From: Prorocentrum cordatum | Lineage: Eukaryota | Assembly (NCBI GenBank): GCA_963575745.1 | Contig: CAUYUJ010000037.1 | Span: 434,001-498,000 of the forward strand | Direction: 5' to 3' | DNA: 64,000 nt | Part shown: piece by piece, positions 10,901 through 42,948 of the stretch | Numbering within the stretch: position 1 is the first letter of the stretch | Layout of the letters: each line of letters begins with the position of its first letter | The notes under the pieces: model-generated | The model's input: only the letters and a program-made list of their open reading frames with translations | What the model was told of the DNA's origin: nothing | Databases searched by the model: none | Made by a program: the position numbers and the translations under genes

Positions 10901-11570
10901 AGGGAGCACAGGGGGCGTCCAAAATCTTCGCGCAGGAGGGCCAAGAACCGCATCGCAAGACGGCCCAGAACCCCTCGCGCAAAGGTGCCCAAACCGTGTC
11001 ACAGGAGCGCGCGTCACAAGGGTTCCCAAAACCTTGCCACTGGGGGCCCAACACCGGGCGCAGGGGTACCCAGAACAGTGCCACAAGGGTGTCCGAAACC
11101 GCGCCACAGGGGCGCCGAAAACCGCGCCACAAGGGTGCCCAAAATCGTGCCACAGGGGACTCAACACCCGGCCACAAGGGTGCCCAGAGACGCGCCACAA
11201 GGGCGCCCAAAACCTTCGCACAGGGGTGCCCCCAAAATCTCGCACAGGGGGGGGCATTTCTTGTCGCAGGGGGCGCGCAATTCCCCGCCACAGGGGGGGG
11301 CCAAATTCCCTATCACAGGGGGTGCCCCATGCCCTGTCACAGGGGGGGGGCGATTCCCTGTCGCAGGGGGCGCTCGATTCCCTGTCACAGGGGGTGCCCA
11401 ATTCTCTGCCGCAGGGGATGTTCGATTCCGTGTCACAGGGGGTGCCCAGGTTCTGGTGACACGGGGTGCCCAGTTCCCTGACACAGGGAGGGCCCAATTC
11501 CCTGACAGGGGGTGCCCGACTCCCTGTCTCAGCGAGGTGCCCAACATCCTGTCACACGGGAGGGGGCCCA
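7980..11570. repeat. Degenerate CACAGGGGG(T)GCCCAAA minisatellite, interrupted by an RTE-like LINE fragment
   Basis: Repeated (c/g)cagggggcccaaa-like units at ~7980-9055 and ~10321-11570. Confidence 0.8.
9060..10320 (+). mobile_element. 5'-truncated, decayed RTE-like LINE (C-terminal half of RT)
   Basis: Motifs VRQG(d)PL, GLSLHPTKCKV, LELLG, IANRIAVGWRKFWALKKLL, STVAGIIMWSSKSW and MLRRMVG. The 3' end has short ATCC(T/C)T tandem repeats (~10306-10320), as typical of RTE-clade tails. Confidence 0.8.
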
Positions 11571-11717
11571 AACGTATCGTAAGAACAAGTCACGCGTTCT
11601 TAAACACAGCTGGGCAAACAAACAGCTTCCTCGTATCATACTGCCCACCCTCCCGCATCACCAGATCGACTCGTCCTTGCCGTACGAACGGCTCACGGAA
11701 TCGTCAGAACAGGCAAC

Positions 11718-12264
<547 letters not shown>

Positions 12265-12291
12265 GGGTTGACCTCCGTCTGTTTGCCCAAG

Positions 12292-12557
12292 GGCGCGCCT
12301 GGCGCTGCTGGAGCGCTTGGCGCGCCTGGCGCACCTGGCGCACCTGGCTCACCTGGCACACCTGGCGCACCTGGCGCCGCTGGCGCACCTGGCTCACATG
12401 GCGCACCTGGCGCGCCTGGCGCACCTGGCGCGCCTGGCGCGCCTGGCGCACCTGGCGCACCTGGCGCACCTGGCACACCTGGCGCACCTGGCTCACCTGG
12501 TGCACCTGGCGCGCCTGGCGCACCTGGCGCACCTGGCGCCCCTGGCGCGCCTGGCGC
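12292..12557. repeat. 9-bp tandem repeat (GCGCACCTG)n
   Basis: About 29 copies of a 9-mer; it translates as Gly-Ala-Pro on both strands. Confidence 0.95.
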
Positions 12558-13733
12558 ATACGAAACAAATACGAAACGCATGCGAACCGTATCCGAAACA
12601 TACACGAAACGCATAGGACATGCATACGAACCGCACCCGAAACATCTACGAAACGCATACGAACCATGTACGAAACGCATACCAAACATATACGAAGCAG
12701 ATACCAACCACATACGAAACACATACGAAACATGTTCGAAACTTAGACGAAACGTATACGAATCATATACGGAACGCATCCACAACGTATACGAAACGTG
12801 TACCAAACGCATACGAAACATATACGAAACGTTTACGGGACATCGGCGGAACACAGACGAAACATGTACGACACTTATGCGAAACATGTGCGAAACAGAT
12901 ACGAACCGTTGACGAACCATATACGAATCCTATACGGAACAAATACGACGTACACACGAAACATATACGAATCAGCTACGAAACATATACGACACATATA
13001 CGAAACATATACGAACCGCATACGAAACATCTACGAAACATGTTTGACACCTATACGGAACAACTACGAACCGCATACGAAACATATGCGAAACATACAC
13101 GAAACACCTGCGAAACATCTGAGAAACCTATACGGCATATATACGAAACATCTCCGACACATATACGAAACGCATACGAAACATATACGAACTTGATACG
13201 GACCATATACGAAACATATACGAAACAGATACGACACTTATACGAAACGTATACGAAACATATACCATGTACGAAACATATACGACACATACACGAAACG
13301 CACACAAAACGTATACGAAACATACGCGAACCACGTGCGAAGCGCATACGAGCCATATACGAACCACATACGAAACATATACGAAGCATATACGAAGCAG
13401 ATACGAAACATCTACTAAACGTATACGACACATCCACGACACATCTACGACACCTATACGAAACACATACGAAAGATATACGAAACATTTACGAAACACA
13501 TACGAAACATCTACGAACCATGTATGACACATCTACGAAACATATACGATACACGTGCGATACATATACGGGACATATACGACACGCATACGAAACATCT
13601 ACGGTATACGAAGCACCCACAACACACATACGAAATATTCACGAAACATCTACGGCACAGCTACGAAACATCTACGTAACATTTACGAAACATACACGAA
13701 ACATACACGAACCATACACGAAACATATACGAA
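12558..13733. repeat. Degenerate TACGAAACATA minisatellite, left block
   Basis: Dense ~10-12-bp acgaaacatat units. Confidence 0.95.
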
Positions 13734-13810
13734 CTTACTGGCCCCTCACGGGAGCCGTGCCCCAATGCGTCTCCAAGACCCGGGGTGTGCGCCCAGATCC
13801 GTTGACGATC

Positions 13811-16800
13811 ATGCAGATCGCCCCAGACGTGCAGGCGCGTGCGGTGACTATCTTTGCTGCTCTAGCAGGCTTTTTCTTTGTTTTTGGCGCGGCCGTGGTG
13901 CATGTTTTGTACTATTGGCCAGCGCTCGTCTTTTCGGAGACTCTGTCCGCCTGCTGGAGCATGTTTAATATATCTGTAACTAAAGCTGGGATCAGCACTG
14001 CGCTTACTCTAAATGCGCTCGTCACCACGATGATTTTCACCGTCGCCATCGCGCTCCCCTGCGCGGGTTAGATGCGCGTGGTTGGCGCGAATGCTGAACC
14101 CTGCAAAATGGAATTGCAGCAGATGCGAAGGGAGACTCAGGATGTCCACCGGCGTGCTCAGACAGCTTGGGAGAGTGCTGCTGCATCGCGCGAACGGGCC
14201 AATCTCGCGACGCTCCGCATGGGGCGGGAGGAAGACAATCGGAAGCTAGATGAGATCCTCTGTAAACAGGATGAACAGTTGAAGCAAGCAACCGAAGAAC
14301 GTGCGATGGCCAACCGCGCCTCCGCTGCTGCGGAGACTTACCATGACGCATGCGGTAACGACGCCGCCCATCTGCAGTCCAGAGGAAAGGGCCTTGGGAA
14401 AGAAGATCGTATGTGCCGCAACTTTGCGAGTTCAGGCTTCTGCTCTTACGGGGTAAACTGCAACTTCGCTCGCGGCGTCGTTCCCAACGCTCCCGCGAGG
14501 AAGCCTAGGAACTTCCTGATGCTGCTCGTCGCGCTCACTATGGGCATTGCATTGGGCGCAACGTACAAGCCCGAGTACCCTGTAACGGATGATGGAGCTG
14601 CGCCCGCCGCCATCCCCGCGGGGGGCGCGCTTCAGCCCGCTCCGCCCACCAAGCCGCCAGCAGTCCAGGACCAAGCATCGGGCGCAACATGCGAGTCCAA
14701 GGGTCCTGAAGCGGGCGATGGAGTTGCATCTGCCGCCATCTCCGCGGCCGGCGAGCTTCAGCCTGTCTCATTCACCACGTCTCAAACGAATCAGGACCAC
14801 ACCGGTTCCTCGATGGGGAGGTTTGGTGTATTTGTTGGACAGTCTTTTGATCGCAGTGACATGATTGGTATGTTGGCAGACCGCAGCGATGATCACATGT
14901 CTAAAGACGTCAAGTCTGTAACGACTAGCTTGTTAGTGGACCAGGATGACGATGGCGTTTCGAAGGATATTAAGTCACTTCGCCAGGTAATCAATAACCT
15001 CGACGCTTCTTTTACCTCAACACACTGCCGTGGAGTACGAATAGAGGTATCACTAGTTGCACTTTCTCGACCATCGATGAAGACAACAACCTCCTTCCGC
15101 CACCCGCGTGGAAAGATAACTTCATGAAACATGTCAACCAGAATGGCCAGGGGCCTCAGAAGCTTGACGAAGTCACACATTACGCCTCGACGCGTCTTGT
15201 GACTATCAGTGCCACCAGGACCAGGGGCGCACAGGTCGACGCTGGTGCGTTTAGGCTGCAAACCACCGACAGTTTCCACGCATTCTTCAGTCCTTTGGTC
15301 GTGAGACAGACGCAACCCAACCTGCTTGCCAAGGGGATGGGCGACTGGATCTCGGAAACTGGCAAGAGTCATCCTTGGCTGACACCAAAGACCGACGCCG
15401 ATTATGGCCAGGTATCCAAGGCATATGCGACTATCATGTCGGATTTCTGTGTTGAGATGGCTAACGCCACGACTGTCGCTCGCATTGTCGTCTGTGCGTT
15501 CACGAGAAAGTTAGTGGCGACAAGGATATTGTTTGACACATTATTCTCTTGCCTGAGACCGACTACTCACCTGTGTCTACGTCTCCACAGTTCGCCAAAG
15601 GATCTCATGGCCATAGCTGATCTTTTTGACGTTGTGGACTCTTCTGGGGATGATGTTGCCCGCCTTCGAACTCTAATTGGGCGGGCGATTGGAACGACAT
15701 ATCAGAATGTGAAAACGGTGCTTACCGCACTCGTGGAGAGACCGATCGCATTAATTCGATGATGTCATCTATGTTGGCTCACGAAACCAACGCCGCAGAC
15801 TTGAAGCAGATGATTGTGGATGAGCAGAGCAAGTACATGGCTGATCAAAAAGTTTCGAAGACTCAACTGGACTACATAGACGAGCGAGTAAGGACGCAGT
15901 TCCAGAACGTTGTGTCTGAGGTCAGCGACCTCAAGTCGCAGTTGACCTATTTGAATGCTTGGGCTCAGAGGCTTGCCAACGAGCATGCGCGCCACTCCAA
16001 ACCATTCACTGCTATACCCGGCAAGTCCGCACTGTGGCATCAACGTTCGGATGGCACATCGCAGGATTTTGAGAAATAGCGGCAGCTCACCAACCAACAT
16101 TCTGCGGACATCAACATTAGAATCGATCCGCTGGCATCTATGGTTCGGAGCCTCAACTTGCCTGTTTGTGAGTTTTGGCGAACGTACGATCGCTCCTGGT
16201 ACTCAGTGAACGACAAGAAGGTTTTTCCTGTGCCTTGGGGGGTCGCCGTTCCAGACGCCTACGATGAGGCAGCCGCCTTGTTGAAGCGACCTCGCTGCAT
16301 CGATGCCAGGCTCCGCAGCTCCATTGAGGTTTTCATCGCATGGGATCAACGTAAGTACATCTTGATTGGACGGAAGGCCCCTAATGTTTTGTTCAACAGC
16401 CCCCCAGTCCGGGGCCCGTCGGGAGGAAGGGTGGATCCATGCAGAGATGCATTTTACAGGGCCTGTAATCCACAATGACTGCACTCCTTTGGCATCTATC
16501 GTGACGACTAACGTGGACCACAATATCGCGCTCCTCACGTTTCTCCTTATAGTTTTGGCTGTGCACGCTCGCGCCTGTCACAGCTCACGCGGGCCGCTTA
16601 CCAGAGCATCACGCATTGTCCTCTTCTTCTTGACCTTTACGTTTATGGTTGAAGTTGCGACGTCAGAAACAGACGAAGCTATTGCCGAAGCTCTTGTGGA
16701 TTATGCCGTGCGCGTGCGTTCCGTTAGCACTCACTTCATGGGCCGCGGCTGCAAGTGGAAGACGCTGCGTGCGCAGAAAGCCGAGCTCGCCATTGTGAAA

Positions 16801-19800
16801 GAGTTGGAGCCCTTTTTTTTCCATGGCGAAGGACCGCTGCACGACTGCTTCCTCTGCCGACACGTCACTCGACTCTGTGCCAACAATCGGCGGCGCGACG
16901 CCAGAGCGTGGCCCACCTCGTGGCTCAGATCACGGACAGCAGCTGGTTTCCTTGCTGCCACGCACCCAAGATCTCATGATCATGTGCGGCTCGCCTATAC
17001 CGGCTGTCTACGGGCAGTTTTGCGAAGTCAAAGTGGCAGTCAAACGCATCCGCAGGGAGCTCAACTTCACTAGCAAATGTGGTACTTCTTTCTCAATTGA
17101 TGACGGCCATGTGGACAAGTGGTCTTCTATGGGATCTATATTTGCACCACCTATTGCATTCTCCCCACCGCTGACTCGCGAGCCGCCAACGCCTCGTTCA
17201 TCTGATATTTCCGACGATGATCATTGCGAGGCCAATTCTTTTTGACATGTCATGAGGGAAATATCAACAGGCTGCTGTCGGTATGAAGCGCGTCTACGTC
17301 GAAGCGACAGTGGGGAAAGAAATGACAGCCAGACTTCACGGAATGAAAGTCGTCATTGCCCAGGTTATGTTCAAAGACGTTGTCTTTCCTTTTCAAGCAC
17401 GCACTGGCTCTATTTCGGTTGCGTCTACAAGCGAGCAGTCCTGTACAAGCACTTCTCTGAAGTACCGCAAACCGCAGACGATTGCGAACGCCGAGGCCTA
17501 CTGCTTTCATTTGAAGGCCTCTAACTATAATAGCGGAACTATCAGTGAACCGTATAGGGTCCTGACGCACCTTCAGGTCGGTGATTGGATTATCCCAAGC
17601 GCGCACGTTCGCCATTATCCCGCAAGTATGATATCTGATGGCCATTGCAAGATGGAGTCAGCATCTGAGTGTATCGGCGCTTGTTTTGACGCTCCCCATA
17701 TCATGTGGCTCAGCACCAGGAATGAGGACGCCAACGCCTACGCTCGTCAAATCACACATGCACCTGTGACTATGCACGCTCCTGTGATTTCCTGTCAGCC
17801 CGCATCATCTTCAGGAGTCTTCTCGCGCTCGCGGCATAGTGGACTTTGGTCTTTCTGACGACACTTGCATTGAAATGACGAGGATAGGCGCTGGCGAAAA
17901 TATTATTTTCACGACGGGGGCTAAAATTGAGTTTGAGGCGAAGAAGTCGAAGAGGATGAATAACCAGATTGCTCTCGCCTTCGGTGACCCTTGTGGTAAC
18001 AAAAAGGTGGATTGCATTAGCGACGATTCGAAGCTAGCGATGGCCCGACCTTCTTTGTTCATCCCAGGCCCTCATCTGCACCTGCTTGGAAGCCTGATGC
18101 AGTTTACGGACGTAAATTGTTCGGGCCAGGGCTACTGCGTCAAGACTCCCGGCCAAGACACGGAATGCGCACTTCACGTCCTGCGTCAGATTGGTATCAA
18201 GCCCAGGTGCGCAGCGCCGGCCGAGGGTCTCAACGCTGTTTGCGTGGACCATGTTGGGCCCGCCGGCACCTGCGCCATACCAACGGATGAGCTGGCCGAC
18301 GATTTTTCTGTCGCAGAATCAGTCATTAACAGGCGCGTCCGCACCTCATTCGGGAGTACTACGACTGGTGAAATGCCCACGACAGAAGGGGAAGTTGCCA
18401 TCCCCGCGTGGTCAGCAATCGCGATTTCGATGTTCCTTTCATGTGCCTCAAGCCTGATACTTCCTCAGCGTCGTGATTTGGCCGAGGACTTGAAGGGCGC
18501 CGTACACATACTTTCAGTAGTGATCTTTGCAATGATGCCTTTTCTACTTCGTCGGAGTCGCAACAATGTTTTGGGCGACGCCTTATTATTTAGGTTGTTT
18601 GATTTGCAGCCATGACACCAGTAACTTAGCTTGCAGGCTTTCCACGGTACCACTTGCCTTGACTACAACGTTTTGCCCGTGGCCTGCCACATGGTGCATT
18701 ATTATCGTAGTGGGTTCCTGTTGTTACTTTTACCCTGGTGTAATGGGCTCCTCTCAGGCAGTCATTGATTCCTTAGCTCATGGGGCGCTCATGGGCAAGG
18801 GTGCGGGCCCTTACCTCTGGGCCCTCGCCATTGATTATATGCCGGCCGATGCGCGCTGGTGGCGTTCGATAGCCGCCGCCTGCACGATGGGACCCCGGAC
18901 ATTCATTGGCTTTTTGTACACCACATACGCGCTTGAACTAGGTTCGGGCGAGGCGTCATGTGCTGTCGACGCCGTCGCCTCTATCATTCCTCCACGCCGC
19001 TACCAGCTACCATTCGGGCCGCCCTTCAACGAGTTCGATGCAGGAGTGACAATAGGGGCCTTCGCCATGGCGTCGTCACCAGCCATTTTCATGATTTGCG
19101 TGGTGGATGGGGTCAGCAATTTGATTGAGATCTTTTCTTTCTTCCACATATGCAATTATTTCCTGCTTTCTCAGACTGGCTCCACTGTCGTTTCGACCCA
19201 AGTCTCTAGGTCCGTGGAAGTGGCCATCACTACGTTCACCACGTTCTCCGTGACCAATGACGAACTTTGCATCGCCATGGCCGTCATTTACGCCACGCTG
19301 CCATTAATCAACACAGGAAGAGCAAGGCCTCATTCGCTCGCCGAGAAGCGCGCGCAGAGGGCGCTGCCCACTTTGGCTGCCCTTGAGGAGAGGCGTAACC
19401 GAGCCAATCGTCCAATCACCATTGACCCACAGCCTATGCATTACCAGGTTCTGGAGAGGATCGCCAATACCATTGATGTCTGCACCACGCCCGTCGAGGA
19501 GACGCTGGCTGCCCACGCTGCACCGACTTCCCTCGATGCGACTCAGGAGAACATGGCGACTTCACTCCCAGACATGCCCGAGGAGGCCATCACCGATGAT
19601 TCAGTCGTCCCTGAACTCGCGGAGTGGAACGCCGACGCACCTGTCGGCGCTGTCGATGCGCAGTCAACGATCAATGACTGCGTGGCCGCGACCCGCGTTA
19701 TTTCAGGGGCACCTAACACGTTCGCGGCTGACACGCTCATCAGCGCGGACTTTGAGACCGGGCGCAAGACCTTCTCGGCACATGTCTTGGTGAGCGATAT

Positions 19801-20311
19801 CACCAAAGAGACTCCAGAGTCATTGAAGAGGCAGTATATCATTGTATGCTCGACGAGGAAAGGCGCGAAGGTGGCCAAGGAGACGGCCATATTCAGCGCG
19901 ACGAGCGTCACTCGCGTCACCATCCCGAACATTGCGCAGCTCATCGATTACCTCATCACCGGCACGCTCAGCGCATCCGCAGCTCTCCAGGCGACGGCGC
20001 TTCCTTCTGTCTCGGACGACACGAAGGCGCAGCACCAGGTCGCGACAATGGCCTTCATCGAACACAGGATGGTCGCCTCAAGTAACGGCGTCACGCCCGC
20101 CGTCACGGCGTGTCTTACTGGCGCGCCCACAACAGACACCACCACCCCAGCCTATACCTTGGATACGATTACAGCCAAGGGCATGAGCAACGGCTCAGTC
20201 CTGAAAGTGCATGGGTACTCCGAGGGCTCGGTGGAGAAGCGTGCGTACGCGCGCGTCGCCGTCCTTTACGGCAAAGTGGGGTCCAAGCCCTACTTGATTG
20301 CCCTGCAGTAG
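13811..20311 (+). pseudogene. Decayed ~2,100-aa multi-membrane polyprotein: TM, coiled coil, CCCH-like Zn finger, signal peptide, helical ectodomain, TM/signal, Cys-rich ectodomain, multi-pass TM region, soluble C-terminal domain
   Basis: Abutting + strand ORFs (13811-14071, 14072-15127, 15124-15762, 15759-16079, 16140-16478, 16366-17073, 16823-17245, 17283-17858, 17839-18615, 18566-20311). Stops at 14069, 16077 and 17243 are followed by same-frame coding sequence. CRNFASSGFCSYGVNCNFAR lies at 14414-14473. Confidence 0.65.
18566..20311 (+). CDS. Longest open segment of the insert (581 codons): hydrophobic multi-pass region plus soluble C-terminal domain of unknown function
   Basis: Uninterrupted non-repetitive ORF with several hydrophobic stretches (e.g. 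WCIIIVVGSCCYFY, IFMICVV, LCIAMAVIYATLPLI). Confidence 0.55.
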   Translation: MFWATPYYLGCLICSHDTSNLACRLSTVPLALTTTFCPWPATWCIIIVVGSCCYFYPGVMGSSQAVIDSLAHGALMGKGAGPYLWALAIDYMPADARWWRSIAAACTMGPRTFIGFLYTTYALELGSGEASCAVDAVASIIPPRRYQLPFGPPFNEFDAGVTIGAFAMASSPAIFMICVVDGVSNLIEIFSFFHICNYFLLSQTGSTVVSTQVSRSVEVAITTFTTFSVTNDELCIAMAVIYATLPLINTGRARPHSLAEKRAQRALPTLAALEERRNRANRPITIDPQPMHYQVLERIANTIDVCTTPVEETLAAHAAPTSLDATQENMATSLPDMPEEAITDDSVVPELAEWNADAPVGAVDAQSTINDCVAATRVISGAPNTFAADTLISADFETGRKTFSAHVLVSDITKETPESLKRQYIIVCSTRKGAKVAKETAIFSATSVTRVTIPNIAQLIDYLITGTLSASAALQATALPSVSDDTKAQHQVATMAFIEHRMVASSNGVTPAVTACLTGAPTTDTTTPAYTLDTITAKGMSNGSVLKVHGYSEGSVEKRAYARVAVLYGKVGSKPYLIALQ

Positions 20312-20750
20312 CTGCCGCGGGATTTTCCCGCTCGATGCTGCTGCGTTTTTTTCCTACCGCCTCGTCACGCGGCAGTCGCTGTTTCCGTGGCCTTTGCCGG
20401 CTCGAGCTAACGACGTCACGAGCCCTGCTCGTCTCTCTTTCGCTCTCGGAGCGGTCAGGCTATGCCTGATAATTCGCATGTCCTATTTCACTGTGCACCA
20501 CCGCGCCCCAGGGCGCACCCGCTTGTGATCTTTCCTTGACAATGCGCAACGCGTTGCTGCTTCAGACAAACTGATGCAATTTAAGCTGGGCATCCGCTAT
20601 GATCTCGACAGCGCTTCCGTGCGGCTCTAGCTCCTGCTTCCACACCGAAACGCACTGCAGAAGACGCCTGCCACTGCCTCGTCATCCCGCGTACCCTGAC
20701 GCCTGTCAGAATGCTGCCCGCCATGCATACTTGGACTAACGTCAAAAACA

Positions 20751-21428
20751 ACGAAACATATACGAAGCAGGTACGACACGTATACGAAACGTATACGACA
20801 CGTATACGAAACGCGTACGAAACACATACGAAACATATACGACACGCATACGAAACAGATACGACACATGCGCGAAACATACACGAACGATACACGAAAC
20901 ATATGCGAGACACATACGAAACGTATACGACATATATACGAACTGTATACGAAACATGTACGACACATCGACGAAACCTTTCCGTACCGTATACGAAGCA
21001 ACTACGAAGTATATACGAAACATATACGAAACATATACGAAACAATTCCGACCCACAGACGAAACATATGCGAAACAGATACGAACCATATACGAACCAC
21101 ATTCGAAACATATACAAAACATACACGATACATCTACGAATCATATACGAACCACATGCGAAGCATTTACGCCACATATGCGAAACATATACGAACCACA
21201 TGCGAAACATATAAGAAACATATAGGACCCAAATACGAGTATACGAAACATATACGAAACATGCACGAAACGTACACGAAACATATACGAAACAACCACG
21301 AAACATACACGACACGTATACGAAACATATACGAAACATACACGAAACGTATAAGACACATTAACGAAACATATACGAAACATGCACGAAACGTATACGA
21401 CCTATATACGAAACATATACGAAACGCG
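20751..21428. repeat. Degenerate TACGAAACATA minisatellite, right block (same orientation as left block)
   Basis: Same unit and strand as 12558-13733. Confidence 0.95.
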
Positions 21429-21516
21429 CACGGCGCGACCGCGGCACAGAATCCCCACCACACTCCCTACACTCCTTACACCAGATTAAATTGGGCAAAC
21501 AGAACGAGGTCAGCCC

Positions 21517-21549
<33 letters not shown>

Positions 21550-22239
21550 CAGCAGTAGTAGTAGTAGTAGTGGTAGTAGTAGTAGTAGCAGTAGTAGTAG
21601 TAGTAGTAGTAGTGGTAGTAGTAGTAGTAGGAGTCGTAGTCGTAGTCGTAGTAGGAGTAGTAGTAGAGTATCGTACTTGCAGCTGTAGTAGGAGTTGTCG
21701 TAGTAGTAGTAGCAATCGTAGCAGCAGAAGTAGAAGTACAAGTATAAGTGGAAGTAGTAATCACAGTGGTAGTAGAAGTAGTACGAGTAACCGTAATAGT
21801 AGTAGTAGTAGTAGTAGCAGTAGTAGTCGTAGTAGCAGCAGTAGTACGAGTGGTAGTCGTAATCGTTGTCGTTGTCGTAATCGCAGCCGCTGTAGTAGTG
21901 ATAGCAGCAGGACTGGAAGTCGCAGTAGTAGTAGTAGTCGTAGTTGTAGTAGTAGTAGTGGTAGTAGTAGTAGTAGTAATAGTAGCAGTAGCATTAGTAG
22001 TAGTAGCCGTAGTACTCGTAGTACTCGTAGTAGTAGTGGTAGTAGCAGCAGCCGCAGCAATAGTAGCAGCCGTAGTCGTAGCAGCGGTAGGAAGAGTGCG
22101 AGCATACATATTATCCGTATAATTGACAGTCGTAGTTGTAGGGATAATCGTAGTAGTTATGGTCGTAGTTACAGAAATCGCTGTAGTCGCCGTAGTAGTA
22201 ATAGTAGTCGTAGTAGTAGTAGTAGTAGTGGTGGTAGCT

Positions 22240-22282
<43 letters not shown>

Positions 22283-22502
22283 GAGTAGTAGTAGTAGTAA
22301 TAGTAGTAACAGTGGTAGTAGAAGTAGTAGTCGTGGTCGTAGTAGCAGTAGTAGTAGTAGTAGTGTTCGGTAGTCGTGGTAGTAGTCCAATATTTGTATG
22401 CGTAGCAGTAGCAATAGTAGTAGTCGTGGTCGTAGTAGCCGTAGTGGTCGTCTTAGTTCTAGTAGAAGTGGTAGTCGCAGTAGTAGTAGTAGTAGTAGTA
22501 GC

Positions 22503-22534
<32 letters not shown>

Positions 22535-22568
22535 TAGTGGTAGTAGTAGTAGTGGGTGTAGTAGTAGC

Positions 22569-22612
<44 letters not shown>

Positions 22613-22626
22613 TAGTAGTAGTAGTC

Positions 22627-22659
<33 letters not shown>

Positions 22660-22791
22660 CGAGTACGAGTAGCCGTAGTAGTAGTCGTTCCAGCAGTTGT
22701 AGCAGAGGTAGTCGCAGGAGTCGTAGTAGCAGGACTAGTAGTCGCTGCAGTCGCAGTATTCGGGGGAGCAGCAGGACTAGTAGTAGCAGTG

Positions 22792-22839
<48 letters not shown>

Positions 22840-23392
22840 ATAGTAGTAGTAGTAGTAGTAGTACCGCCCCCCCCCCCTTTGATTTGACCCCGATACTCCC
22901 TTCTTGGGGGACTCCCCCCCCCTCTGCCCCTCCCTCCCTGAGGAGTCCAATCATTCGCTTCATGGGGGGAGGCCGCGGCCCCATGAAGCGAATCCCGCAT
23001 GCTCGGGGGGCGAAAGTCCAAAAACACAGGAAACACAACAAAAAAAAAAAAACAAAAAAAACAATCCTGGCGACCTTTTCGCCCTCCCCACCCCCTCCGA
23101 GGAATTCCTCAGGATTGTTTTTTTTTTTTTTTTTTTGTTTGATTTTTCGGCCCTCCACCCTTCCCCCTGGGGAGCGGGCGGCCCCAGGAGCCCCCAAGAG
23201 GACCGTGGGAGGCACCAGAGAGCCCCCAGAGAGGCATGATGAGAGGTTGTAGTAGCAGTCGTAGATATTGTAAGAGTACTAGCACCACTGATAGTCGCAG
23301 TGGTAGAATTACTAGCCGTAGTAGTAGTCGTAGTTGTGGTCGTAAGCAATGATAAACGTGGCGATCGTAATAGTAGTCGTAGTACTTTAGAC

Positions 23393-23464
<72 letters not shown>

Positions 23465-23650
23465 CCGCCCCCCCCCCCCCCCCTTTGATTTGACCCCGAT
23501 ACCCCCTTCCTGGGGGACTTCCCCCCCCTCTGCCCCTCCCTCCCTGAGGAGTCCAATCATTCGCTTCATGGGGGGAGGCCGCGGCCCCATGAAGCGAATC
23601 CCGCATGCTCGGGGGGCGAAAGTCCAAAAACACAGGAAAAACCAAAAAAA

Positions 23651-23689
<39 letters not shown>

Positions 23690-24047
23690 AATCCTGGCGA
23701 ACTTTTCGCCCTCCCCACCCCCTTCCGAGGAATTCCTCAGGATTGTTTTTTTTTGTTTTGTTTGTTTTTTTTTTTGTTTTTCCTTGTGTTTTTTTGGTTT
23801 TTCGGCCCTCCACCCTTCCCCCTGGGGAGCGGGCGGCCCCAGGAGCCCCCAAGAGGACCATGGGAGGCACCAGAGAGCCCCCAGAGAGGCATGATGAGCG
23901 GTTGTAGTAGCAGTCGTAGATATTGTAAGAGTACTAGTACCACTGGTAGTCGCAGTGGTAGAATTACGAGCCGTAGTAGTAGTCGTAGTTGTGGTCGTAA
24001 GCAATGATAAGCGTAGCGATCGTAATAGTAGTCGTGGTACTTTAGAC

Positions 24048-24095
<48 letters not shown>

Positions 24096-24319
24096 GTAGT
24101 AGTAGTAGTAGTAATAATGGTAGTAGTAGTAGTAGTATCAGCCGTAGTAATAAAACCGTAGTAGTAGTTGCAGTAGTAGTAGCACTAGTAGTAGTAGTAG
24201 TAGTAGTAGTGGTAGTAGTAGTAGTAGTAGTGGTAGTAGTAGTAGTAGTAGTAGTAGTAATAGTCATGGCAGTAGTAGTAGCAGTCGTAGCCGTAGTAGT
24301 AGTACTAGTTGCGCGACTG

Positions 24320-24368
<49 letters not shown>

Positions 24369-24395
24369 TAGTAGCAGTAGTAGTAGTAGTAGTAA

Positions 24396-24427
<32 letters not shown>

Positions 24428-24975
24428 GTAGTAGTAGTACTAGTAGTAGTAATGGTCGTAGTAGTAGTAGTAGTAGTAGCAGTAGTAGTAGTAGTAAAAA
24501 AGAAGTAGTAGTAGTAGTAGTAGTAGTAGTTACCGTAGTCGTATTAGTCGCGGTATTACTAACAGTAGTAGTAGTAGTAGTAGTAGTAGCAGTAGTAGTA
24601 GTAGTAGTAGTAGTAGCCGTAGTAGTAGTAGCAGTCGTCGTAGTAGTAGTAGTAGTAGTGGTAGCAGGAGTAGTCGGAGTGGAAGTAGCAATGGTAGTAA
24701 CAGTAGTAGTAGTAGTAGCAGCAGCAGTTGTAGTAGTAGCAATAGTAGTAGTAGTAGTAGCCATGGTAGTAGTAGCCGTAGTAGTGGTAGGAGTAGTTGT
24801 AAGAAAATAGGAGCAGCCGCTAAATAATAGTAGCAATCATGATAGTAATATAATAGTAGCAGTAGTCGCATTACTGAGAAAAATAGCATGAGTAGTAGTT
24901 GCAGTAGTAGTCGTAGTAGTAGTCGTAGCAGGAGTCGTAGTGGCAGTAATAGTAGTAATAATAGTAGCAGTACTC

Positions 24976-25015
<40 letters not shown>

Positions 25016-25350
25016 GAGTAGTAGTACTAGTACTAGTAGTAGTAATAGTAGTATTAGTGGTAGTAGTAGTAGTAGTAGTAGTAGTAGTACTGAGAAAGGT
25101 AGTAGTGCCTGCCGAAGTAGTAGTAATAGTAGTAGTAGTAGTACTACTACTACTACTACTACTAGTGGTAGTCGTAGTAATAGTAGTGGTCATAGTAATA
25201 ATGAAAGCGGCCGTAGTCGTAGTAGTAGTCGTAGTAGTAGTAGTAGTAGTAGGAGTAGCAGCAAGGTTATTCTGAATAGAAGTAGTAGTAGCAATAGCAG
25301 TAGCCGTAGGAGTTTTATTCGTATTAGTAGTAGTAATAGAAGTAGTAGTT

Positions 25351-25416
<66 letters not shown>

Positions 25417-25518
25417 ATGGTAGTGGTCGCATTAGACATTGTAGTCGTAGTCGTAGTAGTCGTAGTAGTAGTAGTAGTAGTCGTCGTCGTAGTAGTAGTA
25501 GTAGTAGTAGTCGTAGTG

Positions 25519-25551
<33 letters not shown>

Positions 25552-25552
25552 A

Positions 25553-25587
<35 letters not shown>

Positions 25588-25805
25588 AGGTAGTAGTAGT
25601 AGTAGTGGTGGTGGTAGTAATATCAGTATCAGTACTAGTCGGAGTGATACTAGTAGGAGTACTACTAGTAATAGTAATACTAACAGTAGTAGTCGTAGTA
25701 CGCCCCCCCCCCCTTTTGATTTGACCCCGATACGCCCCCTCCCCGGCGTCGCTGCGAGGGAGGCGGCGTTCGTTTTCGCGGGGCTCATGCGAGGCGGGTA
25801 TGTGG

Positions 25806-33494: not shown

Positions 33495-34230
33495 CGATGG
33501 ATCTCCTTATGGGGCCACGATGCGCGTGAAGGGTGTGCCGAAATCGGGCAGGGCGGAGATCCTCATGAAACCACGACACGTGTGAGATGTGTGTGTGTGT
33601 GTGTGCCAAACTGGGGCGGCGCCGCCATGCGGAGTGCGCCACTGGGACCTTGGGTGGAGCTCCATGTGGGGTCACGAAACGTGTGAGGGGTGTGGCAAAT
33701 GGGGCGGAGCCCCCGCGCGGACTGCGCCAGTGGGACTCTTGGGTGGGTTTCCTTATGGGGCCATGAAACGTGTGAGGGGTGTGCCAAAATGGGGCGGCAC
33801 CGCCATGCGAACTGCGCCAGTGGGACTTGAGGTGGAGCTCCCTATGGGGTCGCGAAACGTGTGAGGGGTGTGCCAAAATGGGGCGGCGCCGCCATGAGGA
33901 GTGCGCCATTGGGACCTTAAATGGAGCTCCCTGTGGTGCCATATGAAACGTGTGAAGGAGTGTTCCAAAATCGGGCGGCGCAGTCGTGCAGACTGCGCCG
34001 CTGGGACCATGGGTGGAGCTCCCCATGGTGCCATGAAACGCGAGAGGGGTGTGCCAAAATGGGGCGGCGCAGCCATGCGGACTGCGCCACTGGGACCCTA
34101 GGTGGAGCCCCAGATGTCGCCAAGAAACGTGTGAGGGGTGTGCGAAAATGCGGCGGCGCCGCCATGCGAACTGCGCCACTGGGGTCTTGGGTGGAGTTCG
34201 CTATGGTGCCACGAAACGTGTGAGGGGTGT
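33495..34230. repeat. ~89-90-bp satellite (GAAACGTGTGAGGGGTGTGCCAAAATGGGGCGGCG...), about 8 copies; the last copies are re-amplified in the gene array
   Basis: gaaacg anchors at 33676, 33765, 33854, 33945, 34035, 34124 and 34213. Confidence 0.92.
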
Positions 34231-34643
34231 GACGAGGACGATTATGGTGATGATGACGACGATGGTGATGATGGTGATGATGACGGACATGATGATGACG
34301 ATGATGACGACGACGGCCATGATGTTGATGATGATGACGACGACGATCACGTGCACGATGACGATGATGACAATGATAATGATGGGAAGGGGGAGGGAGG
34401 AGTGGGAGGAGGAGAGGAGGAGGAGGAGGACGCGGGGCGCTGTTTCTTCAAAACGAGGACCCCAAACCGCAGGATGGTTGGGAAAAAGTCAGCGTGCGAG
34501 TACGATGACGACGACAGCGCACTGGACAATGAAGACGTCGGAGGCCTCAGCAGTGGCCGCCGCGGGGGGATGCTTATTTTCACTGTATTATTGTCGGTCT
34601 TATTTGTTCCATACCCCCGCGCAAAAAGACTCATTGATTCTTC

Positions 34644-34676
<33 letters not shown>

Positions 34677-35178
34677 GATTCTCCTCTTCCTATCTTTTGT
34701 ATAAGCCCGGGTGGGGGGAAAACCCATCACCCCCCCCTCCAAAACCGGACTCCCGGGACCTGGGGCTTTGGGGCCCTCCGGACGGGCCTCGAAGTGGCCA
34801 CCGGGCCTCGCAAGGCGTTTTGCCAAGCCTTCCCAGCACACTTAGGGCGATCAGGGGGTCATCGGAGACGTCAAGGATCCCCAAGACAGCACAAGAGCGC
34901 TCCAAGAGTGACCGACGTGACCTCAAGATGGCCCAAGAGGCCTCCAGGACGGCCCCAAAGAGGCCTCCAAGAGCACTCCCAAGAAGGCCCCCCGAGGCAA
35001 AAATCATTGATTTTCTGTGCGTTTTGGTGAATTTTGGGGCTCTCCTCTTTTCGGCTTCCCGACGCTCCAAGAAAGGGCTTCCAGGCAGCCCAAGAGAGCC
35101 CCAAAACGGCCAAACACGGGTCCAAGATGGCCCTCAGAGAGCCCCATGGCGGCCAAAGATGTCCCAAAGACACCCTCC

Positions 35179-35215
35179 TCCAGCGCCATTTTGGCTCAAG
35201 CCGCGTTGGCTCACG
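35179..35215 (+). other. DinoSL relic (22 nt) plus a second degenerate nested relic, copy 1
   Basis: TCCAGCGCCATTTTGGCTCAAG versus DinoSL DCCGTAGCCATTTTGGCTCAAG (19/22), followed by CCGCGTTGGCTCACG (11/15 to CCATTTTGGCTCAAG). Confidence 0.92.
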
Positions 35216-35295
35216 GCGCGGAGTCGGGCCAGCGCTCAAAGCCGGCTCGTTCCCGTCACCCTCCTCAGTCCTCCCCTCTCCCGCCTGGCCGCGCC

Positions 35296-37201
35296 ATGCT
35301 TGCCCGCAGGGGACCGCACTTGCCGCGCATGCTCGCTTCGGAGAGCGACGCCGAGCTGGCAGAGCTCGCCACGTGCAGCACCGCCTGCGCGGCCCGGCCG
35401 CGGGCCGCCGTCGCAGCGCTGACCGCGGCCGCGGTGGCGCTGGTGCTCCTGGCGGTGGCAGGGCGCGGGGGAGCTCCTGCAGGAGCCGTGGCCGCCGCCT
35501 GGCCCGAGGCCATCGTCAAGGCCTCCGACAGCCGGAGCGCGTGCGTCCTCTTCGGGGGCCTGGCGGTGAGGCACGGGGCTGCGAACGCGTCCTTCTCGAC
35601 GTGGGACAACAGCAGTGACGTCACGTTCGTCTTCGAGGGGAATCTGTGGCTGGTCCAGATGGACGACGTCAAGATTCAGGCCCAGACTGGCAGGCTGAGC
35701 GACGGGCAGACGGAGTACACTAACGTCCTCAAAGAGATTGCCATCGGTGGCTCTGCCTTGACGGGGAACGTCCTCCACATCTCCGCGAGAGGCGTTACAT
35801 GGCGTAATGCTGACGGATCGGAGGAGTCCATCCTCAGTGACCTGGACACCGAGTTTTCGAACGAACTCGTCGAGGCAAAAAGGGATAACTCGGGGGATGT
35901 TGTCCTGCCCGATCGCAAGGACGCCGAGTTGAATGTGGTGCACGTGAGGCTACCACAATCGGTTGAGCTAGAGGTCTATCAATGGCCTGATTCCGCTGGC
36001 CAACACTTTTTCGGGCATTTGCGCGGATAGTACATTGCCAGGAGTAGGGGTACCCATATCAGCAAGCCTTCTCCCAGCGTCTAATCACAGCCGCAGTTGT
36101 GCAACAAAGGAGTCTGAAGTTCCTTGGCCTTACGGGACGGGTGATTGTTTGGCATCTGAAGCACAGCTTACCAGCTACAGCGCCATTGACAATTCAATAA
36201 CTTGTGGATTCTGCAGGCAAAACAAGTTCGCGAACTTTCTTGGGGATCTTGCCAAGAAGTTGAAGGAATTGAAACAAGAGGAGTGTTTTCAAGGGGTGAT
36301 ATACGGAGTGGCATTTGGTTCCAAGTATGAAGCGATGTTAGATACAACCGACGATGCGATTGCTCATCGGCTTCTCCAGGTTCACCAGCGGTGTTTCTTT
36401 TATTTTGTTAATTCTGCTGCTGACTTCGTCGAGGGCGCAGCGTATTCAGATATTTCTTTAAATCGCACTTCCAAGAATGGCCTCAATATTTTGATCCCTG
36501 TGCCGACGAGCGTTTTGCCATATCAGAACATGCGGAGGAATACAAAGTTATTCAAGATGCATGGAGGTTTTGGGGTCTTCGCATTTGCAGAGCGTCTTTA
36601 CTGGCAGGATGCGAAAATGTGGGATTTCGCATTTAACCATCATTTCGATGGTGTGATGAACTATTACAAAATGTTCTTGGAGAATGTGCAAAACACTGGC
36701 GCCTGTGTCTTTTTCAGGTCCTTGTGTGACGAACAGCGTTGGTACAAGAACCATTGCGCAACAGTCTCGGCTCCAGAGTTTACTAACACAGCCGATCACG
36801 ACGAGGTTAGGAAACAATGCAGTCATTATCGACGACTCGGTACAGACAACGACCGTATTTCTTTGGACAGCGGCATGATTGACAGCGCAGTTATTGTGTG
36901 GGATATGAGTAGCGAGCGGTGCCGCGATTTTAATACCAAGATTACGTGTACCTGGCTCGGCGAAATCGAATGCTTTGGAGATCGTGATCAAATCAGTTTC
37001 CCAGAAGTTCTCCGCGCAGTGGGCGTCTATGAACCAAGTCCGGTGAGTCCAAAAGGTGTGCAGCACAAGGATCGGCTTTTCGTTGGAGTAGATACAGCAT
37101 CTCCGCTGGTTCACATTGGAAGAAGTAGCTGTCATTGGTACGTCTCGTCTCTTGACAACAACATGTTTACTTGCCCTAGTAATCCAGATGCCGTGGCATA
37201 G
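35296..37201 (+). pseudogene. Retrogene copy 1, frameshifted by a 35-bp deletion at ~36002
   Basis: It lacks CCTTATCGACGTCAAGATCATTACGCCGTTGGAGC, which is present in copies 2 and 3. The ORF splits into 35017-36030 and 36035-37201. Confidence 0.88.
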
Positions 37202-38960
37202 GCCATCGCTGAATCTCAATGTTTTTATGCTTTGCGCATTCCCGTCAGCCCATCCAGGACGCATGTCCAGACGAGTCGCCTGAAGCAGGCAAGTGTAGGA
37301 GGAAGCATCATTCAGCAGCCTGGGTTGTCTATGCTGTAACGGGGGGGTGTTCGCGGAGCTTTTTCAATTGGACTGTTTTTCCTTGGTCGGCTCCTGCGTG
37401 TCATCCTTGCGCGTGTCACCCTCTGTATCGGCCCCCAGGGGGCATGGATCGCCTCGCAGCAATGTCAATCTTAGTCGTAATCGACGTTGTCACATCATGC
37501 CAGTTCGCCCCGGGCAGGAGAAAAAAAAGAAGATGTCCCAAAGACACCCTCCGAAGAATTCCAAATCGTGATCCGGTCGTTCAGGGAGACGGCGGTTGGA
37601 GGCAGGGTGGCCCGAGGAAGCCCCCGGAGGCCCCCAGAATGCGCCCAGGAGGCCTCCAGAAGGCCTTAAGAAAACCCGAAACAACTCTTGTGATGCCATA
37701 TGAAACGTGTGAAGGAGTGTTTCAAAATCGGGCGGCGCAGTCGTGCAGACTGCGCCACTGGGACCATGGGTGGAGCTCCCCATGATGCCATGAAACGTGA
37801 GAGGGGTGTGCCAAAATGGGGCGGCGCAGCCATGCGGACTGCGCCACTGGGACCCTAGGTGGAGCCCCAGATGTCGCCAAGAAACGTGTGAGGGGTGTGC
37901 GAAAATGCGGCGGCGCCGCCATGCGAACTGCGCCACTGGGGTCTTGGGTGGAGTTCGCTGTGGTGCCACGAAACGTGTGAGGGGTGTGACGAGGACGATT
38001 ATGGTGATGATGACGACGATGGTGATGATGGTGATGATGACGGACATGATGATGATGACGATGATGACGACGACGGCCATGATGTTGATGATGATGATGA
38101 TGATGATGATGATGACGACGACGACGACGACGACGACGATCACGTGCACGATGACGATGATGACAATGATAATGATGGGAAGGGGGAGGGAGGAGTGGGA
38201 GGAGGAGAGGAGGAGGAGGACGCGGGGCGCTGTTTCTTCAAAACGAGGACTCCAAACCGCAGGATGGTTGGGAAAAAGTCAGCGTGCGAGTACGATGACG
38301 ACGACAGCGCACTGGACAATGAAGACGTCGGAGGCCTCAGCAGTGGCCGCCGCGGGGGGATGCTTATTTTCACTGTATTATTATCGGTCTTATTTGTTCC
38401 ATACCCCCGCGCAAAAAGACTCATTGATTCTTCATGTGTATATATATATATATATATATATTCTCCTCTTCCTATCTTTTGTATAAGCCCGGGTGGGGGG
38501 AAAACCCATCACCCCCCCCTCCAAAACCGGACTCCCGGGACCTGGGGCTTTGGGGCCCTCCGGACGGGCCTCGAAGTGGCCACCGGGCCTCGCAAGGCGT
38601 TTTGCCAAGCCTTCCCAGCACACTTAGGGCGATCAGGGGGTCATCGGAGACGTCAAGGATCCCCAAGACAGCACAAGAGCGCTCCAAGAGTGACCGACGT
38701 GACCTCAAGATGGCCCAAGAGGCCTCCAGGACGGCCCCAAAGAGGCCTCCAAGAGCACTCCCAAGAAGGCCCCCCGAGGCAAAAATCATTGATTTTCTGT
38801 GCGTTTTGGTGAATTTTGGGGCTCTCCTCTTTTCGGCTTCCCGACGCTCCAAGAAAGGGCTTCCAGGCAGCCCAAGAGAGCCCCAAAACGGCCAAACACG
38901 GGTCCAAGAAGGCCCTCAGAGAGCCCCATGGCGGCCAAAGATGTCCCAAAGACACCCTCC

Positions 38961-38997
38961 TCCAGCGCCATTTTGGCTCAAGCCGCGTTGGCTCACG
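38961..38997 (+). other. DinoSL relic plus nested relic, copy 2
   Basis: Same sequence as copy 1, immediately after the 5' TSD (38938-38960). Confidence 0.92.
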
Positions 38998-39077
38998 GCG
39001 CGGAGTCGGGCCAGCGCTCAAAGCCTGCTCGTTCCCGTCACCCTCCTCAGTCCTCCCCTCTCCCGCCTGGCCGCGCC

Positions 39078-41905: not shown

Positions 41906-41938
<33 letters not shown>

Positions 41939-42831: not shown

Positions 42832-42868
42832 TCCAGCGCCATTTTGGCTCAAGCCGCGTTGGCTCACG
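42832..42868 (+). other. DinoSL relic plus nested relic, copy 3
   Basis: Same sequence, after the 5' TSD (42809-42831). Confidence 0.92.
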
Positions 42869-42948
42869 GCGCGGAGTCGGGCCAGCGCTCAAAGCCGGCT
42901 CGTTCCCGTCACCCTCCTCAGTCCTCCCCTCTCCCGCCTGGCCGCGCC

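Follow-up and report, generated by a model that had tools for sequence, protein, structure and literature searches.

A 9.25-kb satellite-bearing block resembling an old, non-autonomous DNA transposon, with a nested 7-kb insertion, in a (GTA)n microsatellite of Prorocentrum cordatum

Introduction

Stowaway-type MITEs, which derive from Tc1/mariner, are non-autonomous and have a flanking TA and inverted repeats of about 25-30 bases, while PIF/Harbinger elements are defined by a 3-bp TWA target-site duplication (TSD). Sequences retroposed by LINE machinery (e.g., processed pseudogenes and non-retroviral endogenous viral elements) have no terminal repeats, a long TSD and an A-rich 3' end. MITEs that bear tandem repeats are a described kind (PMC3879986): in the description given there, DTC84 of Donax trunculus and the oyster pearl-type MITEs are non-autonomous, carry short flanking inverted repeats and have a tandem-repeat body that is associated with a microsatellite, the repeats being found elsewhere in the genome as well. 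Tetris/foldback of Drosophila virilis is likewise outlined as a non-autonomous DNA transposon whose internal repeats also occur in satellite arrays elsewhere (PMC4079207). In dinoflagellates, terminal inverted repeat (TIR) elements whose TSDs measure 3, 4, 5 or 8 nt are reported to be abundant (bioRxiv 10.1101/2020.10.14.339549; PMC10666404), and these accounts depict introner-like elements as having short TIRs, TSDs of 3-8 nt, no transposase and many families (Roy et al., bioRxiv 10.1101/2020.10.14.339549; PMC10666404).

Here we analyse a block of 9.25 kb that interrupts a (GTA)n microsatellite in a 64-kb stretch of Prorocentrum cordatum DNA (hereafter, the window). An earlier note, made from the sequence alone, had read the block as a satellite-filled, non-autonomous DNA transposon that could spread a virus-like polyprotein as cargo. 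We found that the anatomy stands (i.e., TIRs, satellites and no transposase) and that the virus-like cargo does not. Examined in one copy with both its ends, the block resembles an old, non-autonomous DNA transposon of a known kind.

The locus shares with DTC84 and the pearl-type MITEs all of the traits listed above, the likeness being one of general layout. It differs from them, as far as that description goes, in its far longer arrays (1.2 and 0.7 kb for the 11-mer, 0.27 kb for the 9-mer), in a microsatellite that is the target and not a part of the unit, in the single documented copy and in its dinoflagellate host. The resemblance to Tetris lies in the internal repeats; unlike foldback elements, which are portrayed as having tandem repeats inside long inverted arms, this unit has no such arms, both 11-mer blocks running in the same orientation and the inverted repeat being only 28 bases long. 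With introner-like elements it has in common the host group, short TIRs and the lack of a transposase, and its junctions would allow a TSD of similar length, but those elements are described as short and intronic in genes, whereas this unit measures 9.25 kb and lies in a microsatellite whose surroundings show no trace of a gene. Finally, the 28-base TIRs, the TA at both ends and the non-autonomous character recall Stowaway-type MITEs; the TA here is, however, part of the GTA repeat, is self-complementary (palindromic) and may belong to the TIR, and no DD(E/D) partner was seen.

Results

Coordinates of all features are collected in Table 1. The earlier note had claimed 28-bp inverted repeats where the GTA microsatellite stops and resumes, and we could confirm this pair as unique in the window and far beyond chance. 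Specifically, when 12263-12290 is set against the reverse complement of 21491-21518, 25 of 28 bases are identical and positions 6, 14 and 15 differ. Tandem Repeats Finder placed the end of (AGT)n at 12265 and the restart of (TAG)n at 21517, and the TIRs therefore lie exactly at the microsatellite interruption, which is the arrangement of a class II TIR element. When the two 300-base ends were compared with each other (blastn-short), the pair was the sole match (28 nt, 89.3%, E 1.7e-5). Each strand of the window holds a single match to the 26-base core, one perfect and one with 3 mismatches, and two matches arose in none of 100 dinucleotide shuffles. A sliding 28-mer scan revealed no further copy in the 64-kb window: its runners-up were four windows at 18-19/28, three of which are one repeated gene unit, against a background of 0-6 such matches in 20 block shuffles. 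An all-against-all scan for inverted repeats gave 1387 clusters, nearly all of them satellite against inverted satellite, and among the clusters listed the 12263/21491 pair alone has an arm left of 21687. A 10-base likeness to the right TIR at 11611-11620, below 18/28 in the sliding scan, was judged to be due to chance.

Table 1 Features of the block and its flanks (positions are those of the window)
Feature	Position	Strand	Description
Left flank, (AGT/GTA)n microsatellite	11718-12264		89% pure; last complete GTA unit 12262-12264
Left TIR	12263-12290	+	28 nt including outer TA; TAGGGTTGACCTCCGTCTGTTTGCCCAA
Left TIR, 26-nt core	12265-12290	+	GGGTTGACC...GCCCAA
9-mer array (GGCGCACCT)n	12292-12558		29.7 copies; abuts left TIR
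11-mer minisatellite (ATACGAAACAT)n, left block	12558-13733		107.6 copies
Direct repeat, copy 1 (ACGAAACATATACGAA)	13718-13733	+	Last 16 bases before insert; candidate TSD of 16 bp (or 5 bp)
Nested insert	13734-20750	+	7,017 bp, low-copy; + strand ORFs in shifting frames; A-rich 3' end (…GTCAAAAACA)
351-aa ORF	14072-15124	+	Single CCCH zinc finger of the tristetraprolin type at residues about 112-136
591-aa open frame	18536-20308	+	Residues 178-573 84% identical to Prorocentrum cordatum protein P0001
Direct repeat, copy 2	20751-20766	+	Identical 16-mer; first bases after insert
11-mer minisatellite, right block	20751-21425		61.6 copies; same orientation as left block
Right subterminal stretch	21426-21490		65 non-repeated bases; 10 or more variants among contigs of DNA run X1
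Right TIR	21491-21518	-	28 nt including outer TA; reverse complement TAGGGCTGACCTCGTTCTGTTTGCCCAA
Right flank, (TAG/GTA)n microsatellite, resumed	21517-22863		70% pure

Beyond the window, a pattern of the TIR core with 20 specified bases matched three loci/contigs in metagenomes, all of them one identical, unrelated coding sequence; their flanks differ from the element, and we rejected them as chance matches. The same pattern had no match in viral contigs, and a peptide search with residues 36-78 of P0002 gave no candidate for another copy of the right end among predicted proteins. Within the window, all 118 blastn HSPs of the interior (12263-21518) lay inside the element.

The length of the TSD cannot be read, because the duplication falls within the microsatellite. 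Overall, lengths of 2, 3, 4, 5 or imperfect 7/8 bp are compatible with the junctions, according to the base at which the repeat is assumed to begin. If the ends are read as GGG...CCC, a TSD of 2, 5 or imperfect 8 bp fits, as the earlier note had it; read as AGGG...CCCT, they allow a 3-bp AGT duplication, and read as TAGGG...CCCTA, a 4-bp GTAG duplication. The restored GTA phase therefore fixes no length. By the 8-bp duplication expected of hAT elements, the GGG...CCC ends give TCGTAGTA against TAGTAGTA (7/8), and with TAGGG...CCCTA no 8-bp duplication fits. The TWA of PIF/Harbinger was not found, AGT (ends AGGG...CCCT) being the sole 3-bp duplication that fits, nor was any DDE_Tnp_4 or Myb-like ORF detected with Pfam among the 48 ORFs of the insert region.

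Between the TIRs, Tandem Repeats Finder recovered the interior that the earlier note had outlined, namely a 9-mer array, a minisatellite of about 11 bases and the insert, and added to it a second, same-orientation 11-mer block (20751-21425) followed by 65 non-repeated bases. The full order is thus TIR, 9-mer array, 11-mer array, insert, 11-mer array, 65 unique bases and TIR, and the 9.25 kb shrink to about 2.2 kb once the nested insert is taken out. Rfam and tRNA scans of 11000-24500 returned nothing.

The 7-kb core is a separate, later insertion into the 11-mer array. One array is split by it, and the left block closes with the identical 16-mer with which the right one opens; for random positions in the two arrays, a flanking match of 16 bases has a probability of 0.0004 and one of 5 bases a probability of 0.02. 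It is this combination of same-orientation satellite blocks with a flanking 16-mer of the insert's own that points to two events. The insert has neither LTRs nor TIRs of its own (its ends share at most 9 bases), its only family of internal direct repeats is an 18-mer pair, and the long terminal direct repeats and reverse transcriptase/integrase of an LTR retrotransposon are lacking. It resembles LINE-retroposed sequences in the absence of terminal repeats, the 16-bp candidate TSD and the A-rich 3' end. It departs from them in its very short A-run (about 8 bases), in the lack of a spliced-leader relic at its 5' end and in having no identified viral or known cellular parent; no reverse transcriptase marks it either. 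Elsewhere in the window, the scan for spliced-leader relics located three, at 35180, 38962 and 42833.

To describe the coding content of the insert, we scanned 48 stop-to-stop ORFs of at least 70 aa, from both strands of 13600-20900, against Pfam. The only family above its cut-off was zf-CCCH, and no transposase, reverse transcriptase, integrase or viral domain (polymerase, capsid, protease, helicase or RdRp) was detected in this set, in agreement with the earlier statement that a transposase is missing. The zf-CCCH hit lies in the 351-aa ORF (21.2 bits, the cut-off being 20.5; E 2e-6 to PDB 1rgo_A) and is a predicted cellular-type RNA-binding finger, the sole recognisable domain of the insert. 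A motif scan of the insert for GDD, YxDD and Walker A yielded isolated tripeptides only, with Walker A absent.

In the 591-aa frame, GC content is 0.53 at the first codon position, 0.51 at the second and 0.68 at the third (GC3). Among 8000 scored candidates it matched one, P0001, which is the sole relative of the insert that we found; none of 7999 candidates of greater length was related to it, and the best E-value against PDB was 0.29. Its Atlas score of 0.75 and that of the 254-aa ORF (0.82) are both under the lead threshold of 0.9. The 275-aa ORF had no match among 1,835,955,588 representative proteins, and three ORFs of the insert had no confirmed relative among IMG/VR contigs.

We compared contigs of DNA run X1 with positions 13650-21560. 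Six pieces of the insert were listed with 0 differences, at a depth of about 3, and the insert looks single-copy in this run. By contrast with these six pieces, the 11-mer satellite and the 65-base right subterminal stretch are present in at least 10 sequence variants: all 10 contigs that cover position 21438 carry a differing base, as do 7 contigs at position 21455, and the 11-mer blocks reach a summed depth of 127-185 (summed contig depth is not copy number). The family thus has more than one member in this organism. Five contigs have a loose end at precisely 20751, and in four contigs 13726-13733 is joined straight to the right array, which indicates other copies of the array without the insert. 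At the right end, the match of a long contig (about 80% alike) stops at 21489, leaving 68 bases unaligned. As this is the inner edge of the right TIR, at least one diverged subterminal copy may not continue into a TIR, the stop being ambiguous because microsatellite words beyond 21509 were masked in the comparison. Next to none of the stretch was present in runs X2 and X3.

Discussion

We propose a history of two nested insertions, to which we assign a probability of about 0.5: a non-autonomous TIR element would have entered the (GTA)n array, and a 7-kb sequence would later have inserted into its 11-mer array. The first event would be that of a class II cut-and-paste element with imperfect TIRs of 26-28 bp (GGGYTGACCTCNNTCTGTTTGCCCAA), both of them bound by a transposase encoded elsewhere, and with its TSD now hidden within the microsatellite. 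The body of this element would have consisted mostly of tandem repeats (the 9-mer array and the 11-mer minisatellite) plus the 65-base subterminal stretch, with no transposase, reverse transcriptase or integrase among the 48 ORFs, and hence we regard it as non-autonomous. In the second event, a separate insertion, a low-copy sequence of 7.0 kb with decayed or multi-exon ORFs landed in the array and would have duplicated 16 (or 5) target bases. Because it lacks terminal repeats and has an A-rich end, its structure is most compatible with RNA retroposition by LINE-type machinery; if its changes of frame are introns, the insert would instead have been copied as DNA and not via RNA. Its later, nested arrival makes the 7-kb piece a putative passenger rather than element-defining cargo, and nothing in it marks a viral origin.

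A rival account holds that no transposon was involved, and that the 9-mer/11-mer satellite block entered or expanded in (GTA)n through recombination, through the repair of a break or when circular satellite DNA reintegrated; the 28-base repeat would then be a junction feature of the satellite family or the leftover of an inverted duplication and not an end bound by transposase. The neighbourhood, which abounds in rearranged satellites, lends this some weight, since a 1.6-kb inverted (GTA)n duplication (24088-25700 against 27484-25920, 90.7%) and a tandem duplication of roughly 600 bp lie within 6 kb, and another motif recurs three times at ends of (GTA)n arrays. The many X1 variants of the 11-mer array and the right edge are what any dispersed satellite would produce, and the one diverged contig whose match ends at the inner edge of the right TIR (microsatellite masked) fits as well. 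Recombination nevertheless leaves unexplained why the same 28 bases stand in opposite orientation at both outer edges and end at the microsatellite; the bases just inside the two TIRs are unrelated, and elsewhere in the window both of the large inverted duplications consist of long tracts of satellite, unlike this short and unique pair. We thus consider this account possible, if rather unlikely. An assembly artefact, in which a long-read mis-join in repeat-rich DNA placed an unrelated satellite-plus-gene segment in (GTA)n, has in its favour that each junction adjoins a long, hard-to-assemble microsatellite and that, with the microsatellite masked, no contig was seen to bridge either of them. 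A mis-join would not, however, leave each junction with a copy of one 28-base inverted repeat, and X1 contigs reproduce the insert independently (0 differences in the six listed pieces), which leaves such an error highly improbable.

Could the whole 9.25 kb be one virus-like or self-contained element (Polinton-like, or linear DNA with short TIRs) with the core as its own genes? The TIRs do enclose about 6.2 kb of same-strand ORFs, the base composition is coding-like (GC3 in the longest ORF), one ORF is 84% identical in a second genomic copy, and orphan proteins are common in viruses. Yet two satellite blocks in direct orientation part the core from both TIRs, the core has its own 16-mer duplication, and its only recognisable domain is the CCCH finger of cellular type. 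Neither the protein-primed DNA polymerase B, retroviral-type integrase and capsid proteins nor the long TIRs of Polinton/Maverick elements or polinton-like viruses were found, the 48 ORFs holding no such domain and the TIRs measuring only 28 bases; an endogenous RNA-virus element is equally without a Pfam hallmark or a confirmed IMG/VR match (three ORFs). The lack of relatives of one ORF among the representative proteins, the absence of longer relatives and the two Atlas scores below 0.9 argue the same way, and we judge a virus-like origin of the block very unlikely. The polyprotein that the earlier note had seen as cargo is therefore better described as a separate insertion without viral, transposase or reverse transcriptase domains. 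An introner-like element, i.e., a unit in a transcribed region that would be spliced via GT at the left and AG at the right junction, is suggested by the + strand across the two ends (GTAGGG...CCCTAG). As far as the cited accounts go, introns of P. cordatum are enriched in short-inverted-repeat elements with 3-5-nt direct repeats (PMC10666404), and dinoflagellate introner TSDs span 3-8 nt (bioRxiv 10.1101/2020.10.14.339549). But every unit of the GTA array contains GT and AG, so the splice-like boundaries are uninformative; no exon is recognisable in the flanks, which consist of pure microsatellite, and 9.25 kb far exceeds the introners described, all of which would make splicing of this kind scarcely credible.

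Returning to the two nested insertions, the locus at present stands as a single, old, decayed insertion with a second one inside it, an ordinary mobile-element scar that is useful for repeat annotation and unsurprising. The main practical result is a negative one, in that present evidence speaks against annotating the 7-kb core as viral or as transposon cargo. If confirmed genome-wide, the element would add a satellite-bodied TIR family to what is so far a poor catalogue of mobile DNA in bloom-forming dinoflagellates and give a concrete example of minisatellite dispersal in this group. A bolder reading, which we hold to be doubtful, is that the 28-mer marks an unclassified family of dinoflagellate DNA transposons with an 11-mer body that would have seeded the satellite at many sites, preferentially in (GTA)n. 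Were this true, satellites in these very large and repeat-rich genomes would spread by transposition as one of their main routes, and units of this kind could carry along later passengers (e.g., the 7-kb orphan gene block). As to the preference for (GTA)n, this repeat makes up about 11.0 of the 54.7 kb of the window outside the element, and the chance of landing in it without any targeting is about 1 in 5.

Inverted repeats at the edges of a microsatellite interruption

The 9.25-kb unit that interrupts a (GTA)n array at 12263-21518 is best read, with a probability of about 0.5, as a non-autonomous element with terminal inverted repeats (TIRs) and a satellite body, which inserted into (GTA)n and was later given a nested 7-kb insertion. 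The earlier note had described 28-bp inverted repeats where the GTA array stops and resumes, and this observation was confirmed and goes beyond chance. Specifically, the two arms are identical at 25 of 28 positions once one of them is reverse-complemented, and comparing the 300-base ends against each other with blastn-short returned a single match (28 nt, 89.3%, E 1.7e-5). The window contains exactly two instances of a 26-base core, one on each strand, and two core matches were reached in none of 100 dinucleotide shuffles. In the Tandem Repeats Finder output the left (AGT)n stops at 12265 and (TAG)n resumes at 21517, which places the arms exactly where the interruption starts and finishes. The ends resemble each other no further inward than the 28-mer itself, beyond which the left continues GGGCGCGCC... 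and the right (read inward) TTTAATCTGG.... No further copy was found when every 28-mer of the window was scanned against both arms, the best windows elsewhere reaching 18-19 of 28 (n = 4, three of them from a single repeated gene unit; 0-6 such windows in 20 block shuffles). A literature search by subject (dinoflagellate repeats, introners and MITEs) returned no description of the repeat.

With the ends taken as GGG...CCC, the left flank closes in ...GTAGTA and the right flank opens in TAGTAG..., and the repeat phase is restored by a target-site duplication (TSD) of 2 (TA), 5 (TAGTA) or 8 bases (7 of 8 matching). These are the lengths that the earlier note had listed, and they hold for that choice of ends; because the outer TA is self-complementary, the arm may start one or two bases further out, and ends of AGGG...CCCT or TAGGG...CCCTA are compatible with a 3-bp (AGT) or a 4-bp (GTAG) TSD, respectively. 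A single copy does not fix the length of the TSD and does not identify the superfamily. Passages in three studies describe many dinoflagellate TIR families with 3-8-nt duplications (10.1101/2020.10.14.339549; PMC10666404; PMC11453091).

Layout of the 9.25-kb unit (positions in the window)
Feature	Position	Remark
Left arm	12263-12290	pairs with right arm as reverse complement
9-mer array GGCGCACCT	12292-12558	
11-mer minisatellite, left block	12558-13733	
Non-repeated DNA, 7.0 kb	between the two 11-mer blocks	
11-mer minisatellite, right block	20751-21425	orientation as left block
Non-repeated subterminal stretch, 65 bases	21426-21490	followed by right arm
Right arm	21491-21518	pairs with left arm as reverse complement

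A nested 7-kb insertion

Comparing the interior of the unit with the rest of the window gave no match outside the element (118 HSPs, all within it). Translated in one frame, the 9-mer array gives a collagen-like (Gly-Ala-Pro)n stretch that adjoins poly-Val encoded by (GTA)n on its upstream side, and gene predictors could take it for a protein.

A second insertion, nested within the first, accounts for the 7-kb core. The last 16 bases of the left 11-mer block, ACGAAACATATACGAA (13718-13733), are identical to the first 16 of the right block (20751-20766). This 16-mer occurs 15 times across both arrays, and the chance of such a coincidence at random positions in both is 0.0004 for 16-mers and 0.02 for 5-mers; given the period of 11, the duplication flanking the insert may be either 16 or 5 bases long. 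Among contigs of a DNA sequencing run (X1) that match the right array, five have loose ends exactly at 20751, and four contigs pass from 13726-13733 directly into the right array, so the insert is missing from other copies of the array. The insert itself has neither LTRs nor TIRs, and its 3' terminus (...GTCAAAAACA) is A-rich. The long TSD, the lack of terminal repeats and the A-rich end would be best explained by LINE-type retroposition.

Coding content of the insert

On the plus strand, a chain of open frames runs from 14072 to 20311 with eight frame changes, and the longest frame is coding-like in composition (G+C of 0.53, 0.51 and 0.68 at the first, second and third codon positions). We scanned 48 stop-to-stop ORFs (9 + 39; at least 70 aa, both strands) against Pfam. 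The sole family above cut-off was a CCCH zinc finger at 14072-15124 (21.2 bits; cut-off 20.5), on which a PDB sequence search concurred (tristetraprolin-type, best E 2e-6); no transposase, reverse transcriptase, integrase, polymerase, protease, helicase or capsid family was detected among the 48. The earlier note's statement that there is no transposase holds for these ORFs, and its virus-like polyprotein finds no support. IMG/VR contigs gave no confirmed relative of three insert ORFs.

The 275-aa ORF had no match in 1,835,955,588 representative proteins, and Atlas scores of 0.75 and 0.82 for insert ORFs fall under the level counted as a lead. Only P0001, an unnamed Prorocentrum cordatum protein, was related to any of the region's ORFs; it has 84% identity to the 591-aa ORF over 67% of the query (single match in 8000 scored candidates), and no longer relative of that ORF was found among 7999 scored candidates. 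P0001 tracks the 591-aa frame and then, from near 20250-20290, the window's +1 frame up to a stop at 20467-20469 that both share, so an indel or a small intron distinguishes the two copies at this point. The insert is an orphan, low-copy dinoflagellate sequence.

Copies in the sequencing run and alternative explanations

X1 contains 42% of sampled words of the stretch, and its source is probably the same organism or a very close one. Its contigs (depth about 3-4) showed no differences from the insert in 6 of 7 listed pieces, an agreement that is not independent support because X1 is possibly the source sample. Across the 11-mer blocks summed contig depth, which is not equivalent to copy number, rises to 127-185; in the 65-base stretch it is down to 33 by 21474 and to 17 by 21490. 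Within that stretch, 10 contigs all carry T at 21438, where the window has A, and 7 carry T at 21455; these counts show that the array-to-subterminal junction exists in at least 10 non-identical copies. At the right end, where words were masked from 21509 on, the match of one long, diverged contig ends at 21489 with 68 bases unaligned, which is mildly against a simple transposon picture.

The anatomy of the unit is plausibly transposon-like. A satellite-bodied, non-autonomous TIR element would have entered the (GTA)n array, and the 7-kb sequence would have inserted within it later. Elements of this kind are already known: PMC3879986 and PMC4079207 describe, respectively, tandem-repeat-containing MITEs and foldback elements that seed satellites. 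Alternatively, the satellite block may be of recombinational origin and the 28-mer a junction feature, a tentative explanation that we consider distinctly less probable. That the whole is a single virus-like unit appears improbable, and we regard an assembly artefact as very unlikely, as we do an introner-like intron. A single insertion is no basis for claiming that (GTA)n is targeted, since this class of sequence occupies a fifth of the neighbourhood (about 11.0 of the 54.7 kb outside the element).

Surrounding region

The neighbourhood of the element is a mosaic of satellites, with a G+C content of about 55-65% outside them. This G+C content, the match to P0001 and the spliced-leader-like relics described below indicate that the DNA is from a dinoflagellate, most probably Prorocentrum. 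A degenerate (GTA)n inverted duplication (24088-25700 vs. 27484-25920 reversed; 90.7% over 1622 nt, spacer ~220 bp) looks like a palindrome-forming rearrangement within the microsatellite. Three times, at 22878, 23484 and 25715 and always on the plus strand, (GTA)n is directly followed by the motif TTTGATTTGACCCCGATAC with a poly-C run before it, and the sequence bearing this motif may be a second repeat family tied to (GTA)n ends. The first two copies sit in a ~600-bp tandem duplication (22841-23425 vs. 23442-24080, 89%), each unit of which contains a polyA / GGAATTCC / polyT palindrome.

Further downstream, at 34148-45000, a gene is repeated in tandem every ~3.8 kb, with 89-bp repeats between units and a 696-aa ORF at 38928-41018. 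Tandem arrays with spliced-leader relics are characteristic of dinoflagellate genes that were retroposed and then amplified. Using the spliced-leader motif, with 3 mismatches allowed, we found a relic-like sequence (CCAGCGCCATTTTGGCTCAAG) at 35180, 38962 and 42833, in each case ahead of a tandem gene copy, and no match in any of 100 shuffles.
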